From: Escherichia phage vB_EcoM_011D4
Strand: one strand, 5' to 3'
Sequence record: MT478991.1
DNA: 64,000 nucleotides
Numbering within the stretch: position 1 is the stretch's first letter; every line of letters starts with the position of its first letter. Below are positions 28,772-35,400 of the stretch, piece by piece. The position numbers and the translations under genes were made by a program. The notes under the pieces are model-generated. The model saw only the letters and a list, made by a program, of their open reading frames with translations. It did no database searches and was not told the DNA's origin.

Positions 28772-28799
28772 ATTATACAGATTTAAATTTACTTGTCAA
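28772..28799 (-). promoter_or_regulatory. sigma70-like promoter for gene 32, inside HNH gene 3 prime end
   Basis: TTGACA-16-TATAAT about 36 nt upstream of gp32 ATG. Confidence 0.5.
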
Positions 28800-29382
28800 A
28801 TACTTTATTAATTATATCTAACAACTTTGGTTTTCTATTTTCAAATTCTAACATTTCTTCGGGAGAAATATCAACTACTTCTGTTTTATGAAAGAAATCA
28901 GGATCTATTGCATCGGCAACAAAATTTCTAGCTAACGCAGCGGCCTTTTCGTAATCATAAAGACCTAGATACAAAAGTTTCCCTCTATCAACCTGAATAC
29001 ATGCTTTATATTTACCATCTCGTTTATAAAAACTTACTCCGATATACTCAGACGTCTTACCTTTTTGCTTTCCAACATTTCTTGAGTTTTGTTGGTCAGT
29101 CGCATCTCTCAAGTTTTCAATCCGATTATCGGTTATAACTCGGTTTACATGGTCAACACATTTTGGCATATATCCATGATGCATGAAGAAAATTATTCTA
29201 TGCTCTTTGTGCAATCGACCATCAAACTTAACTACTCTATATCCAATTCTTGGATTTACATAGCCCGCTCTAGATCCGACTTTATGCTTTCGGTTTGTCG
29301 ATATCTTGCGAATCAGCTTACCGTTATCATATTTAAAGAGTTCATGACAACGAGCATACAATTCAGGATCATATGTTTTCAC
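28789..29382 (-). CDS. HNH homing endonuclease with AP2 DNA-binding domain
   Basis: HNH_3-type motif (HHGYMPKCVDHVNRVITDNRIENL) followed by AP2-like YIGVSFYKRDGKYKA; apparent GTG start overlapping gp59 3 prime end. Confidence 0.7.
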   Translation of the reverse strand: MKTYDPELYARCHELFKYDNGKLIRKISTNRKHKVGSRAGYVNPRIGYRVVKFDGRLHKEHRIIFFMHHGYMPKCVDHVNRVITDNRIENLRDATDQQNSRNVGKQKGKTSEYIGVSFYKRDGKYKACIQVDRGKLLYLGLYDYEKAAALARNFVADAIDPDFFHKTEVVDISPEEMLEFENRKPKLLDIINKVFDK

Positions 29383-30046
29383 CTTTTAACCTCGATATTT
29401 CTTTACACTCTTTAACTACTTTAACAAATAATGTTCTTGCTTTTGCGGCGTCAATAACAAGTAGTTTCTTGTACGCCTTCATTTTAACACTATAAGTTTG
29501 CCAAATCAAGTCTTTGGCTACCTTGTCGTGTTCGTCGATTATATTTAGAAAGCTATCTAACAACATAAACGACTCAAACGATATAATCCGATTTTGCAGT
29601 AGTTTAAAGATACCGCTAGTTTCGGTTGCGGGATTGTATGTAATTAGCTCTTTAAGAGTAACCCCGCGTTTCTCTGAGAAGTATACAAGACTTTTAATGT
29701 CATCGTCAAATCGTGTTGCAGCATCAGTGATCTTACCGATATACTCCATGTAAAATCCGTATGCGTCAACATCAGTGATTTCACCTACCCATGCATCGGT
29801 ATTGGCTACCAGATTGCTTAGGAATAGGAAGTATAATTCTCTTAGATTGTACTTTTCCGCTAATTTCGCGAAATAATACTTATCTCTGCGTTTATTGAAT
29901 GCGGCATCAGACAACCGCATCCTCCAATTGTATTTTACGCAATCATAACGCCCGTTCATGTGAGCTTTCATCATGCAATATAACATATACACAGATTTAG
30001 CATTAATTCGCATATCTGGATCTGGAGGAAGACGGTTTCTGATCAT
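29369..30046 (-). CDS. 59: helicase loader gp59
   Basis: KSVYMLYCMMKAHMNGRYDCVKYNWRMRLSDAAFNKRRDKYYF closely matches recalled T4 gp59 N-terminus. Confidence 0.85.
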   Translation of the reverse strand: MIRNRLPPDPDMRINAKSVYMLYCMMKAHMNGRYDCVKYNWRMRLSDAAFNKRRDKYYFAKLAEKYNLRELYFLFLSNLVANTDAWVGEITDVDAYGFYMEYIGKITDAATRFDDDIKSLVYFSEKRGVTLKELITYNPATETSGIFKLLQNRIISFESFMLLDSFLNIIDEHDKVAKDLIWQTYSVKMKAYKKLLVIDAAKARTLFVKVVKECKEISRLKGENI

Positions 30047-30055
30047 ACATACCCC

Positions 30056-30310
30056 TTAAATATCGAGAGTGTTGGTCGGTTCGTCGATCACTCCCTTCCT
30101 GAGCGTTCTATTTACTATACATTCTTGTGTGATCTTGTCAATAATGGACACCGGAATATATTTCTGATAGTGACCATATTCGATAGAGTTTTCCTCTACA
30201 AACTGCGTTGTCGCTTCAAGATAAGTCAATCCCTCTTCAACAACCAGTTTTTCGATTGCAAGACCGTTTGCTGTTTTGTTCGCGGCTTTTACCGCATGTT
30301 CATTAAGCAT
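30056..30310 (-). CDS. hypothetical protein; positional candidate for late-transcription co-activator gp33
   Basis: Synteny only (T4 order 59-33-dsbA-rnh); no motif recognised. Confidence 0.35.
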   Translation of the reverse strand: MLNEHAVKAANKTANGLAIEKLVVEEGLTYLEATTQFVEENSIEYGHYQKYIPVSIIDKITQECIVNRTLRKGVIDEPTNTLDI

Positions 30311-30578
30311 TGAACACCCGATCATAGAGTTCTACTGCTTCGTCGCGTTCTGCTTCGAAGGTTTCGCGCTGTTGCTGGTGATACAGTTTAAACAGAATGC
30401 CCCACATTTTACCATCGACGCCTAATTCTTCTTTAGCACGCTGTTTGATCTCTTTGATCTTATCGCCGTATGCTTCTTGAATGGTTTTCTGATCGCTGGC
30501 TTCTTTAATCAGTTGTGCCAGGGTATTTCCGTGTACATTTTCATCGAATACTACTTTTTCTTTTTTCTGTTCAGTCAT
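30303..30578 (-). CDS. hypothetical protein; positional candidate for DsbA (dsDNA-binding)
   Basis: Synteny and size (91 aa) only. Confidence 0.35.
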   Translation of the reverse strand: MTEQKKEKVVFDENVHGNTLAQLIKEASDQKTIQEAYGDKIKEIKQRAKEELGVDGKMWGILFKLYHQQQRETFEAERDEAVELYDRVFNA

Positions 30579-30583
30579 AATAT

Positions 30584-31180
30584 TTAACCCTCTTTCGTCA
30601 TTAATTGAAAACCACGTTCAGCTTTTGAAATTTCGCTAGGACTTAAATCGTCACCAACATATTCTAGCATCATTTCTCGGATAATGTCAAGTGCTTTTTC
30701 ATCACCTGATTTTAACTCGAACTCAAGTTCATAGTGAGCATCTCCCATTACTTCGCCGACTTTGCAATAATAGAAAGTGTCTTTGCACATTTCCACTATA
30801 GCACCCTCAAGGTCAATTGTCAATGACTTGCGGTATGTCATTACTTGCAATAAAGGAACGATAAGGTCGGAGTTTACGCCTAGACTATCAACATAATGAT
30901 AGAAATCATCCATTGTTGAAAAAGTAATTTCTTCTCGGTTGAAGAGTCCAGATTCACTATCACCTATTTTGACCATGATCAATGATCTATTAACGTCAAG
31001 TCGAGCATAAATTCCTTTTCGACGCAGTGCATGATCTTCGGTATCATAATAAAATTCGTGTTTTAGAGTGTTAGCACGATCTACTAGATTGTACCCGTCA
31101 TACATTGCTACCCACAAATCACAGATTGTTTCGACGCCAATTTGTGAGTGTGCATAGTATTTTAATTCAAGTTCTTTCAT
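30584..31180 (-). CDS. CYTH-domain (triphosphate tunnel metalloenzyme) protein
   Basis: N-terminal ELELKY and C-terminal HYELEFELK acidic beta-strand motifs typical of CYTH/CyaB-like proteins. Confidence 0.45.
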   Translation of the reverse strand: MKELELKYYAHSQIGVETICDLWVAMYDGYNLVDRANTLKHEFYYDTEDHALRRKGIYARLDVNRSLIMVKIGDSESGLFNREEITFSTMDDFYHYVDSLGVNSDLIVPLLQVMTYRKSLTIDLEGAIVEMCKDTFYYCKVGEVMGDAHYELEFELKSGDEKALDIIREMMLEYVGDDLSPSEISKAERGFQLMTKEG

Positions 31181-31190
31181 ATGTCAACCC

Positions 31191-32138
31191 TTAGAACTCA
31201 CCAATTTTCTGCAACATTTTAACTAACGCATTTGTTACAAAATAGTTATAAATTTTACCGCGTGGTGCTGGTTTAGATTTTTCCCATGCTAACAAAATTT
31301 CATACTCAATGTTATCAGGAATAAATTCAAAATCAATAAGTTCGCGGTTTTCGTCAAAGCGTCGTGCTTCTTCCTCTGTCATCAAAGACTTTGGATCTTC
31401 GGCATCGAAAATTTGCTCTAACCATTTGGTTGCAATTGGTTTAGCTCGTTCACCTTCCAGTCGTGAGATAATGAAATCACTACGGCACTTGATAGAAGCT
31501 ACACCGTCTTTTGCGTCGCCCTTAACACATTTTACCATAAGGTCTTTGTAAGGGCTACCATATTTGCATTTCTTCCATGCTTTCTGTACTGGCGCCCACT
31601 GTTTCACGTTTTTGTATTTGTGCAACTGTGTGTAGTCACCATCACCGGAGTTGATCAGCACCTGGCGACCTTCTACAGAAAACTTTTTAGTTAACACAGC
31701 GATTATATCATCTGCTTCAACTTTGTCAACCTTAATAACGTGATAAGGCATGTTCTCTTTAAACTCTTCGGTGATCTTATTGATCGCAGCAAAGATCATC
31801 TCCCAATCACGCGGATCTGCGTCTCGTTTTTCCTTACGGTTGCGTTTATAGTAAGATGCGATATCACGTCGCCAGTAACCTTTGCTTGAATCAAAGGCAA
31901 GTACCGTAATTGGGTATTGCTCTTTGAATTTTGTCATATTATAACGCATGGTGTCAAGGATAAGATGACGGATCATGCCTTCATTAATAGGATCTTCCGG
32001 TTTAAAGGTATGCGAGATAGTAGCAATCATAAGCTGCGACATATCAATCAAATGCACACCTTCCGGCAGTTTATCTTCTGGATCATCGAAGAAATCATTA
32101 AGTGTAGCGGTAGTTTTTGTAAACGGGTTATACGTCAT
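31191..32138 (-). CDS. rnh: RNase H / FEN-type 5 prime-3 prime exonuclease
   Basis: HVIKVDKVEADDIIAVL, SGDGDYTQLHKY.NVKQW, PRGKIYNYF match recalled T4 RNase H. Confidence 0.85.
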   Translation of the reverse strand: MTYNPFTKTTATLNDFFDDPEDKLPEGVHLIDMSQLMIATISHTFKPEDPINEGMIRHLILDTMRYNMTKFKEQYPITVLAFDSSKGYWRRDIASYYKRNRKEKRDADPRDWEMIFAAINKITEEFKENMPYHVIKVDKVEADDIIAVLTKKFSVEGRQVLINSGDGDYTQLHKYKNVKQWAPVQKAWKKCKYGSPYKDLMVKCVKGDAKDGVASIKCRSDFIISRLEGERAKPIATKWLEQIFDAEDPKSLMTEEEARRFDENRELIDFEFIPDNIEYEILLAWEKSKPAPRGKIYNYFVTNALVKMLQKIGEF

Positions 32139-32364
32139 AATTAAGTTCTCTCCACTCTCACAACAACATATTCGCCAAACGAGTTAGATACTTCACGATC
32201 ATACCCGTATTTCTCCATAACTCGCAGAATTGCATTGTTTAATTCGGCACGGAAATAATTATAATCCTTATCAGGGATTCTGTCAACTACCCATTTTGCA
32301 CCTTCTGACAAATCAACTTTAACCATAATATATCATCCTCTTTTGTTTCTATCAAGCCTCATTT

Positions 32365-32372
32365 TATAAATA
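32365..32372 (+). promoter_or_regulatory. T4-type late promoter TATAAATA for gene 34
   Basis: Exact TATAAATA about 30 nt upstream of ATG. Confidence 0.6.
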
Positions 32373-32400
32373 TGAACATACTATAAAAGGAGACCCAATA

Positions 32401-35400
32401 ATGGCAGATTTTTCTCAACATTTCAAGGCCACATTTGGCTTTGACGCTGGTAATGAAAAGGTCGTCAATGTAGCATTGGCTGATAAGAATGTCAACACCG
32501 ATGCGGTCAACGTTGAATTTTTCAATTACCATAATGGTATTACTCAGTATGACACAACTCGCGGTTATGATCAATACGGAACTACAATCTATCAAAACCG
32601 TCCATATTATGCAAAAGAAGATATCACAAAGCCAGCAGGTGATTTTGACCCGACTAAATGGCAAGCACTGCGCACGGACCCACGTTGGGATTATGTTGCA
32701 GCAACTTCCGGTGATACTCCTTTACAGTCTGGTGATTATATCGCAGCAGATGGTCAATTTGCAAACTTGACTTTCTCTATGCCAACTAAACCAGCAGAGG
32801 GAGACACTATAACAGTAAAAGATATCGGTGGCAAGTGTGGTGTTAACGAATTATCGTTCTTGAGTTCAGGACATGAGTTTTACCATAACGGTAATGTGTA
32901 TAACCGAAAATGGTATTGCACTACCCCGTATGCAATGAACTATTTCATCTTTGTTCGTAATCGTTGGCATGTTTATCAGACAGGAACAGAGCCACGCGGT
33001 GTGTATGCACAGCCAGCGATTGATGCTATTCAAATGCAGAATGGTGATCAGGTATTTCGTCGTAGTTCGTTGGGTAATATTACCTTAGTGCTTCCTAAGT
33101 TTGCCAACAATGGCGACATGATCCAGACTACAGACCTTGACGGATTAACCGCAACCAACCACGTTACGGTTAAAGTTCATGAGCACGCAGAAGAACAATC
33201 AATTGGCACGTCCGGTCTAAAAGAGATTATCGGTAAGCGTAGCGGTCATGGTGTATTCATCTTTGACAAGACGGAAAACTTATGGCGTTTGTGGGATGGT
33301 GATCAGTCTGTTCGTCTTAAACCGATCATCGATGACACTCGCTTGCAACCTAATAGCTATGTTGCCGTATTTGGTGATCGTGATGTTACTCTGACGCTGC
33401 CGACCAATGTCGAGCCGGGTGATCGTATTCAAGTTTCTATGCAGTATATGCACGGAAACCAGAATTGCCGTATTATCACCGCCACAGAGGATACAAAAAT
33501 CCTTATGCAGAAAAACATGGTTCAGTTTCCTAAGCGTAGCGAGTACCCATTCAATGGGACCGATACATGGACGGGAGTATCTGAATTGTCTTTCAACGCT
33601 GCAAATGATTATGTACCTTATCTGGAGTTCTCTTATTCAGAAGGTGATGATGGTAAGAAATACTGGTTGGTGGCACATGCTCACCCGATTGTAGAACGAG
33701 TAGATCCGACTCGTAAAGATCGTGTTGGTGTAATTGCACTGGCTACCCAGGATGAAACAAACAAAAACCATGAAGATAATCCTAGCGACGAAGTTGCGGT
33801 GACTCCAAAGGTTCTGGCTAATAAAACAGCCAACGAAACTCGACGCGGTATTGCTCGCATTGCAACTCAAGCGGAAACGCATCAAGATACTGGTTCCAGC
33901 TTCCTGGATGATGTTATCGTTACGCCTAAAAAGTTAAATAATTGTGTTGCTACCGAAGCCCGTCGTGGTGTGATGGAAATTGCAACCCAGCACGAAACCA
34001 ATGAAGGTTTAGACGATACCCGCGCTATTACTCCTAAGAAATTAGAAGAACGTCGCGCTTCCGAAGATCTCGCTGGTATTGCTGAAATTGTTCAGGCTGG
34101 CGGTAGTGCTGCCGCTCGACGTGGCGAAGCTGGTACAGGGATCTATAACATCAACGACCATGCTAAAATTGTTACGCCACAAAACATCAACGAAGTCAAG
34201 GCGACCGAAACTTCCCGTGGTGTTGGCTATCTGGCAACTGACGCGGAAGTGCAAGGGGCTACAGAATCAACCCCGCAAGATGCTTTACTAATCACGACTC
34301 GCACGCTAACGAAACGTACTGCTACCGAATCGCGCACTGGTATCGCTGAAATTGCAACTCAGGAAGAAACAAACTTAGGTCAAAGTGATAACCATATCAT
34401 CACGCCTAAAAAGCTGCATACTCGCCGCGCAACGGAAACTTTACATGGTTTAGCAGAAATTGCAACTCAACCGGAGTTTGACGCAGGTCTTGACGATGCT
34501 CGCATTTCTACCCCATTGAAGATTAAAACCTTCTTTGAGAATGCACAGCGTTTGAAAGTAGATCCGACTCAGGGGCTTAACCTTACTGGTGATTTGTGGC
34601 AAGGTATCATGATTCGCGGTCTGGACGCAACCGAAGACACAAAAGGTGTCGCTAAAGTTGCTACTACTCAGCTTACGGATGCTGGTCAAGATGATACTAC
34701 AATCATCACGCCTAAAAAGCTGCAAGGCAAAAAGGCCACCGAAGGTAAAGAAGGTATTATCCGAGTTGGTACTCAAGCCGAAACCGTGGCTGGTACACTG
34801 GCTAATGTAGCAATTTCTCCGAAGAACTTCAAATATGTTGTTCAGACAGAGGATACATGGAAAGCAACCGAAGCGCGTCGTGGTTTCTTGAAAGTTGCCA
34901 CTCAGGAAAACTGTTTTGTTGGTGATAATCTGCAAGGTTCTACTCAAGAACTAGGAAACTACCAGCATGACGGAATTGCTGTTACTCCGAAAGGATTAAA
35001 CTACGCACTTGCTAATTTCTTACCTAAGATGGCAACCGCTCAGAATAGTTTGAAATTGGGTAACGTAGAGGCCGCTAAATGGGCGCGTAGAGACATTGAC
35101 CAGACCATAGAGAGCAATTACACGTTTAATAAAAACGTTAACGTGAAGGGCGATTTAGGGTGCTTAAAATCTGGTTCCTTTGAAACTCTGTCTGTGACTA
35201 AGAACTCGACCGATGGTCCGAGTAATGGTCATCTGGTGTTGGGTGAGCGTGGAGTTGACGGTCACACCGGAATTACTCTGCATGGCACAACCGCATCGGA
35301 AGGCATGAAAAACTCGTGGTCTATTATCGTTGGTGGTACTGGAACAGCGCAAGTTGTTGATAGTGATGCTATCGCTTTCGGTAAAATCAATGATGGTGGA

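Follow-up and report, generated by a model that had tools for sequence, protein, structure and literature searches.

A probable triphosphate tunnel phosphohydrolase with an atypical tunnel lining and a hypervariable central cassette, encoded between rnh and dsbA in Escherichia phage vB_EcoM_011D4

In bacteriophage T4 (NC_000866) the genes dsbA (149509-149778) and rnh (149787-150704) are immediate neighbours and no annotated gene separates them, so a gene found at this place in Escherichia phage vB_EcoM_011D4 (MT478991.1) is extra relative to T4. What does this gene encode, and which role could its product play in infection? We analyzed a stretch of 64,000 nucleotides of this phage (hereafter the window), in which the gene occupies positions 30584..31180 of the minus strand as a single open reading frame (ORF) with an ATG start, 198 codons and the product N-terminus MKELELKYYAHSQ (MKELELKY). 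The ORF listing contains no overlapping plus-strand ORF of 40 or more amino acids. An earlier annotation made from the letters alone (hereafter the sequence-only reading) had proposed a CYTH-domain protein and had supposed that T4 has no gene at this position, which the T4 record bears out. We propose, with a probability of about 0.7, that the product is a stand-alone two-metal phosphohydrolase of the CYTH/triphosphate tunnel metalloenzyme (TTM) superfamily that acts on a small triphosphate substrate, being related to the tunnel domain of the Escherichia coli triphosphatase YgiF and devoid of its CHAD domain. This proposal draws on sequence comparison and structure prediction.

The Pfam CYTH profile (PF01928) matches the protein with 27.7 bits, above its gathering score of 23.2 (E = 2.9e-6), and is the only significant Pfam match, a sub-threshold one being to Baculo_p74 (E = 0.084). 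Comparison of the phage clade with 19 cellular CYTH proteins by hhalign gave a probability of 99.8% (E = 1.8e-28). Searching 1.84 billion representatives with a profile built from 18 family members retrieved 211 proteins at E <= 1e-3, including three close relatives; the remainder are CYTH proteins of ~200 aa and proteins of ~500 aa, a YgiF-like length. When the 19 nearest cellular matches were scanned with Pfam, all contained CYTH and one contained CHAD as well. The AlphaFold2 model (pLDDT 92.1, pTM 0.85) has eight long strands and four helices, and is predicted to form the eight-stranded antiparallel β-barrel, or closed tunnel, characteristic of the CYTH/TTM superfamily. Among PDB structures the top Foldseek match is YgiF (E = 2.4e-12, TMq 0.77), and all 49 matches at E <= 1e-3 have the tunnel fold, nearly all of them being TTM enzymes, plus the Mediator subunits Med18 and Med20. 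The CYTH/triphosphate-tunnel assignment of the sequence-only reading is thus upheld by the Pfam score, the hhalign comparison and the predicted fold. That reading had also named two observations that would speak against it, a predicted structure lacking the tunnel and acidic motif residues that are not conserved; we found eight long strands matching tunnel folds, and E3, E5, E151, E153 and E155 are invariant in homologs down to 32% identity.

Residue conservation was analyzed in a MAFFT alignment of 151 CYTH sequences (YgiF residues are given in protein numbering, to which PDB chain numbering adds 2; all gene coordinates below are on the minus strand). The ExExK motif at residues 3-7 (ELELK, 31160..31174) provides E3, E5 and K7, the counterparts of the metal site 2 ligands E4/E6/K8 of YgiF, which are E, E and K in 147-148 of the 151 sequences. 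Strand β2 carries K40-H-E42-F-Y44-Y (31046..31063); Y44 and D46 are shared by 150 sequences, and K40, invariant in the phage clade, occurs in only five, the usual residue being Leu. Strand β3, Y58-A-R60-L-D62 (30995..31009), contains R60, the counterpart of the first arginine of YgiF, R56, in a column that is Arg in 150 sequences. K71 (30968..30970; Lys in 150) corresponds to YgiF K69, which binds substrate and orients the first Glu (PMC4641920). The basic and acidic tunnel pair of strand β5, R82-E-E84 (30929..30937), is conserved in 148 (R) and 149 (E) sequences, the tunnel arginine of strand β6, R117 (30830..30832), in all 151, and the acidic tunnel residues of strand β7, E130-M-C132-K-D134 (30779..30793), in 145 (E130) and 150 (D134). 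Strand β8 is HYELEFELK (residues 149-157, 30710..30736), in which E153 (150 of 151) corresponds to YgiF E160 of metal site 1 and E155 (151 of 151) to YgiF E162 of metal site 2. The sequence-only reading described the ELELKY start correctly, but took HYELEFELK for the end of the protein; 41 more residues follow. They include the helix SKAERGFQLM (30599..30628), equivalent to the 'plug helix' at the C-terminus in TTM proteins (SKAARGYHLA in YgiF), with K186 in 150, R189 in 133 and G190 in 141 sequences; the AlphaFold2 model has a helix at 186-195 that matches it.

In YgiF, Glu160 binds metal 1, and Glu4, Glu6 and Glu162 bind the water-activating metal 2 (Martinez et al. 2015, PMC4641920); Arg56 is the one arginine critical for catalysis, and Lys69 aids substrate binding (PMC4641920). 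The residues of YgiF and AtTTM3 known from mutagenesis or structure to be important (E4, E6, R56, K69, E160, E162) all have invariant counterparts in the phage protein (E3, E5, R60, K71, E153, E155). Residues E3, E5, K7, K71, E153 and E155 are each present in 147-151 of the CYTH proteins. Across the phage clade the invariant set comprises ExExK, Arg60, Lys71, Arg82/Glu84, Arg117 and Glu151/153/155. It includes the basic patch typical of the superfamily (R60, K71, R82, R117), with the exception of Asp62 in place of the second arginine of the RxR motif.

The register of the catalytic arginine requires separate consideration. In pairwise phmmer/hmmsearch alignments to YgiF, Tyr58 stands opposite Arg56 and Arg60 opposite Arg58; if this were correct, the enzyme would lack its catalytic arginine. 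The R56A substitution abolishes YgiF activity and R52A of AtTTM3 strongly inhibits catalysis, whereas R54A of AtTTM3, at the equivalent of the second RxR arginine, does not (PMC4641920). We considered a loss of the catalytic arginine, giving an AC-IV-like (class IV adenylate cyclase) or inactive protein, and rejected it, as both the 151-sequence alignment and hhalign place Arg60 at the first arginine. In the AlphaFold2 model (strands 57-62 and 67-76) the β3-β4 hairpin is predicted to be two residues shorter than that of YgiF, which would set Arg60 across from position 69, like YgiF Arg56, as judged from hairpin pairing rather than from coordinates. From these alignments and the model we concluded that Arg60 probably occupies the catalytic position and that the catalytic set is complete, with a small residual doubt left by the pairwise alignment. 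The same evidence makes it very unlikely that the protein is a catalytically dead binder, or 'sponge', sequestering a triphosphate-containing molecule. Such a role would accord with the pairwise register and with the fast evolution of the protein surface (see below), which is typical of phage counter-defence proteins, but the multiple alignment, the hhalign comparison and the hairpin register of the model agree on Arg60, and full conservation of both metal sites down to 32% identity is difficult to reconcile with a role in binding alone.

Several GenBank records label the protein as an adenylate cyclase, which would make it a class IV (CyaB-type) enzyme with adenylate or nucleotide cyclase activity, supplying a cyclic nucleotide in infection. 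AC-IV enzymes are distinguished by the motif HFxxxxExExK, a small residue (Cys, Val or Leu) in place of the first arginine, and ExA in place of ExE (Vogt et al. 2021, PMC8233210). In the phage protein only Met-Lys precedes ExExK, which starts at residue 3 and so leaves no room for the HF motif; the first arginine is kept as R60 instead of Cys, Val or Leu, the pairwise alignment alone disagreeing; and ExE is kept (E153 and E155, both invariant), not ExA. The structural match to AC-IV is also much poorer than that to YgiF. The cyclase label is therefore unsupported, because all three AC-IV discriminators fail, and we regard cyclase activity as the most improbable of the functions considered here.

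What distinguishes the phage clade is the lining of the tunnel. Column 62, the second arginine of RxR, is Arg in 142 of the 151 sequences and Asp in four, with Asp restricted to the phage clade; column 58 is usually Ala, Ser, Gly or Thr (small in 130) and Tyr in four. The clade thus has the signature Y58-x-R60-x-D62 in place of A/S/G-x-R-x-R. Other clade-specific substitutions that face the tunnel are Lys40 (usually Leu), Met69 (Thr), Phe80 (His) and Phe136 (Gly). By its sequence, the protein is expected to combine TTM phosphohydrolase chemistry with an atypical tunnel lining.

By homology, the triphosphate substrate would be held at the centre of the eight-stranded β-tunnel. Glu153 would hold the Mg2+/Mn2+-triphosphate complex at metal site 1, while Glu3, Glu5 and Glu155 would hold the second metal, which would activate the attacking water. 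Arg60 would touch the β-γ bridging oxygen, Lys7, Lys71, Arg82 and Arg117 would bind the phosphates, and the C-terminal helix would close the tunnel at one end; hydrolysis would then remove the terminal phosphate. With less certainty, we infer that the preferred substrate may be a small organic triphosphate (NTP-like or thiamine-triphosphate-like) rather than bare tripolyphosphate (PPPi), because the tunnel lining departs from that of YgiF-type tripolyphosphatases and host pyrophosphatase already removes most PPPi.

It is nevertheless possible, with odds well below even, that the protein is a plain YgiF-like inorganic tripolyphosphatase (PPPase) or short-chain polyphosphatase that clears PPPi in infection, such as the PPPi that dNTP triphosphohydrolases of the host release. 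YgiF is the best match by both sequence and structure, no metal or phosphate ligand is missing, PPPi is the specific substrate of YgiF and AtTTM3 (PMC4641920, PMC3440374), and two GenBank records carry the label 'inorganic triphosphatase'. On the other side, the protein shares only 22-23% identity with YgiF, has Asp at the second RxR arginine, and carries an added tunnel Tyr and Lys that are unseen in ~146 of 151 cellular relatives. The benefit to the phage is also doubtful, since pyrophosphatase dominates the PPPase activity of E. coli, to which YgiF contributes a marginal share, and PPPi is undetectable in this host (PMC3440374).

The sequence-only reading had suggested RNA 5'-triphosphate processing alongside the RNA repair enzymes; the protein would then be an RNA 5'-triphosphatase acting on ppp-RNA ends of primers or transcripts. 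A position beside RNase H would fit such a function, and it is the less likely one among the functional suggestions of that reading; we consider it unlikely on several grounds. The protein has no match to Pfam mRNA_triPase (PF02940), and its closest structural similarity is also not to capping triphosphatases, which Foldseek finds at E ~1e-4 and TM 0.42-0.50 compared with E = 2e-12 and TM 0.77 for small-molecule TTMs. The plug helix is of the conserved YgiF type. T4 carries out the equivalent replication chemistry without this gene. The proximity to RNA repair enzymes was loosely stated, as pseT and rnlA are 11-13 kb distant, past frd, td, nrdA and nrdB. The other suggestion of that reading, manipulation of a nucleotide signal, finds neither support nor contradiction in our results.

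Matches to the 1.2-kb region around the gene were found in 58 phage records at 90-99% nucleotide identity, all of them Krischvirus (relatives of RB49, JSE and Phi1), and in all 58 the CYTH gene lies at the rnh-dsbA position. A tblastn search of 50,697 phage records gave no match outside Krischvirus, and when the clade alignment was used to scan the viral contigs of IMG/VR, only three loci were retrieved, all Krischvirus-like. The metagenomic relatives P0043, P0044 and P0045 (45%, 39% and 32% identity, respectively) are all encoded directly upstream of dsbA-gp33, and the P0043 contig has rnh upstream as well. The next-best match, P0046, is an archaeal CYTH protein encoded beside a PRK-family kinase, in a cellular and unrelated context. 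By this distribution, the gene is an old resident of this T4-like phage branch without a close cellular donor. Where RNase H, DsbA and gp33 of the compared phages are 65-80% identical, the CYTH proteins are 32-44% identical. In Krischvirus and related T4-like phages it is an old accessory gene that is syntenic and evolves fast. On the archaeal metagenome contig (L013, 4797-6606) the P0046 gene is immediately downstream of the kinase gene, and RNA ligase and NUDIX genes are located nearby.

The divergence within Krischvirus is concentrated in codons 10-149 (30734..31153, minus strand), which the identity profile delineates as a hypervariable allelic cassette between phages whose flanks are 97-100% identical. 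Phage Skers and a metagenomic phage (L007) share 97-100% nucleotide identity with the window in rnh, dsbA, 33 and 59 and ~50% in the middle of the CYTH gene. In three allele classes the cassette edge at 30734 directly abuts the codons for HYELEFELK; the counterparts used for comparison are L002 4028-4450 and L007 6028-6445. The central region forms at least three deep groups with 38-46% amino acid identity between them, a divergence as great as that from the truly distant P0043, whereas residues 151-198 are 96-100% identical. Even for the two common alleles, RB49-type and Phi1-type, the synonymous divergence (dS) reaches 0.48 in the centre, compared with 0.07 in the 3' part and 0.10 in rnh, and the ratio of nonsynonymous to synonymous divergence (dN/dS) is 0.24 in the centre versus 0.01 in rnh. 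Such an excess of synonymous divergence points to old alleles moved by recombination, and not merely to relaxed constraint. The motif-coding ends (ExExK and ExE) are obvious homology anchors for crossovers. Strand positions assigned as tunnel-facing are more conserved across the deep alleles than outward-facing ones (0.77 versus 0.53, Mann-Whitney p = 3e-5), the assignment being made by strand parity around known catalytic residues and DSSP rather than from coordinates. Thus, the active site is kept while the exterior turns over.

Two other accounts of this pattern were considered and set aside. A diversity-generating retroelement was considered as the source of the cassette; the alleles are ~50% different at all base types and differ by indels, which fits imported alleles and not targeted mutagenesis. 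An embedded σ70-like promoter (TTGACA-18-TAGAAT, 30690-30661) was considered as the cause of 3'-end conservation and dismissed, because in the distant phage L006 the 3' end diverges normally (60-75% nucleotide identity), as do its neighbours; the 3' end of the gene is shared Krischvirus backbone. A second, smaller mosaic patch lies beside the CYTH cassette in Skers, at ~31260-31380 in the 3' part of rnh (region coordinates 1021-1140), with 73-78% nucleotide identity to the window as compared with 97-100% in the remaining rnh.

The cassette pattern is compatible with neutral introgression, and also with balancing or diversifying selection exerted through a host factor. An island of ancient alleles in a conserved replication cluster is a pattern that usually marks genes of host-phage conflict. 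It can be speculated, as a rather doubtful extension of the proposed hydrolase function, that the protein is a counter-defence or host-interaction enzyme that destroys a triphosphate-bearing molecule from the defences of the infected cell, with its exterior under balancing or diversifying selection by a host factor. Candidate targets would be PPPi from dGTPases/dNTPases that act in defence, or an antiviral or signalling nucleotide that is triphosphorylated. This would jointly explain the very old alleles (saturated dS, 38-46% amino acid identity) of codons 10-149 that are swapped as a cassette, the invariant tunnel ligands, and the differences from housekeeping PPPases at Y58, D62 and K40. If a host-phage conflict were confirmed, it would point to a triphosphate metabolite that affects the outcome of infection. 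Our literature search found no experimental work with phage CYTH enzymes and no report of a counter-defence role; the sole comment met is a general one on jumbo phages, among which CYTH triphosphatases are scattered and might break down nucleotides (PMC7824862).

The immediate surroundings of the gene suggest when it is expressed. Upstream, within a common transcription unit, lies rnh (RNase H/5'-3' exonuclease; 31191..32138, minus strand; Pfam RNaseH_C E = 2e-37, 5_3_exonuc_N E = 1e-17), and downstream dsbA (dsDNA-binding late transcription factor; 30303..30578, minus strand; Phage_DsbA E = 5e-22), so that Pfam confirms both flanks named by the sequence-only reading. The intergenic gaps are 10 nt (rnh-CYTH) and 5 nt (CYTH-dsbA). 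The TAA stop codon of rnh overlaps a Shine-Dalgarno-like AAGGG 7 nt before the CYTH ATG (31188..31193, minus strand; TCTAAGGGTTGACATATG), which indicates tight coupling of the two genes. A consensus scan of 27-37 kb found no T4-type late promoter (TATAAATA) on the CYTH-gene strand. Since the gene is tightly packed in the rnh cluster and lacks its own late promoter, the product probably appears prior to replication or in its course; expression is likely to be pre-replicative and joint with rnh. The region 29300-32500 contains 22 σ70-like matches versus 10.7 +/- 3.3 in shuffled sequence, about twice the expected number. Such sites are enriched on the minus strand upstream. Seventeen of the matches lie on the coding strand, a perfect TTGACA is present in eight, and several fall within rnh, the CYTH gene and gp33; examples on the minus strand are 32286-32258, 31729-31702, 31187-31159, 30823-30795, 30690-30661 and 30141-30114. 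This excess may reflect real internal early promoters or a compositional effect. The sole late promoter motif TATAAATA on either strand of 27-37 kb is located at 32365-32372 (plus strand), where it precedes the start codon of gene 34 (32401) by 29 nt and serves this gene.

Beyond dsbA the cluster continues with gp33 (Pfam Trans_coact E = 2e-26) and then gp59, the leftward order being rnh-CYTH-dsbA-33-59-(HNH)-32-frd-td-nrdA-nrdB...denA-rnlA-pseT. The CYTH gene thus belongs to a replication and nucleotide-precursor region. Between genes 59 and 32 there is a 197-aa homing-endonuclease-like ORF with HNH_3 and AP2 domains (28789-29382, minus strand), which shares 14 nt with the end of gene 59. Skers has this ORF (SKERS_102) but the RB49 and JSE references lack it, and in T4 another endonuclease, SegG of the GIY-YIG type, occupies this junction, which looks like a recurrent homing site. 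Upstream of rnh is a conserved 61-aa ORF (32141-32326, minus strand) without a Pfam match, labelled hypothetical in RB49 (RB49p247), JSE and Skers; in T4 nothing is annotated between rnh and gene 34.

Several considerations weigh against the proposed phosphohydrolase with a preference for an organic triphosphate. Its activity and substrate are both deduced wholly by comparison with relatives, and a plain tripolyphosphatase is the simplest default, YgiF being PPPi-specific. The preference for an organic triphosphate derives only from the clade-specific tunnel substitutions. The position of Arg60, with which the pairwise alignment disagrees, is set by alignments and a predicted hairpin and not by an experimental structure. 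The contrast between tunnel-facing and outward-facing positions depends on strand parity, and the expression timing on gene packing and consensus scans only.

The CYTH/ygiF-like assignment is already public and not new. The protein is 100% identical to NP_891816 of RB49 (RB49p245, RB49ORF244c), whose RefSeq note reads 'similar to P45267, P30871, HI1598, ygiF', and Nolan et al. (2006) listed 'RB49ORF244c CYTH domain 0.0026', the number being the E value (PMC1524935). The domain assignment itself therefore adds little, having been flagged since the RB49 genome papers. GenBank labels among the phage records are inconsistent, being mostly hypothetical, with 'adenylate cyclase' in three records and 'inorganic triphosphatase' in two; published sequence criteria allow the cyclase label to be rejected. 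PHROG 14893 matches at E = 2e-132 and is labelled 'unknown function', and the NCBIfam and PADLOC libraries gave no match for the protein. Our analysis adds the rejection of the cyclase label, a residue map with a complete catalytic set, the clade-specific YxRxD/Lys40 tunnel and the hypervariable cassette. The gene is a core gene of a phage genus with isolates studied for food safety and therapeutic use, and its complete catalytic set and distinctive tunnel make the product a clean candidate for biochemistry.

Among known systems, the gene of the close relative RB49 (RB49ORF244c/RB49p245) is identical and shows no differences. The best match among characterized proteins in both sequence and structure is the N-terminal TTM/CYTH domain of YgiF (PDB 5a60, 5a61), at an identity of only 22-23%. 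YgiF is a CYTH-CHAD protein of 433 aa with CHAD at 221-433 (PMC4641920), whereas the phage protein ends at residue 198 without CHAD, has a β3-β4 hairpin two residues shorter, and is encoded in a replication cluster. Relative to YgiF, the second RxR arginine is replaced by Asp62, Ala/Ser by Tyr58, Leu by Lys40, Thr by Met69, His by Phe80 and Gly by Phe136. Mammalian thiamine triphosphatase (ThTPase; PDB 3bhd, 5a64) shares 13-16% identity; of its W/YxRxR signature the phage protein has the aromatic residue (Y58) and R60 but lacks the second arginine, and in the distant relatives P0044 and P0045 the aromatic residue is replaced by Val/Ile. All three signatures of the class IV adenylate cyclase CyaB (Yersinia pestis, PDB 2fjt/3n0y) are absent from the phage protein. 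The Cet1-type, mimivirus and vaccinia RNA triphosphatases, some of them virus-encoded, have in common with it the tunnel fold with two Glu-rich strands. Finally, the archaeal kinase gene and its neighbour encoding P0046 represent a split-gene equivalent of the kinase-CYTH fusion of plant TTM1/2.

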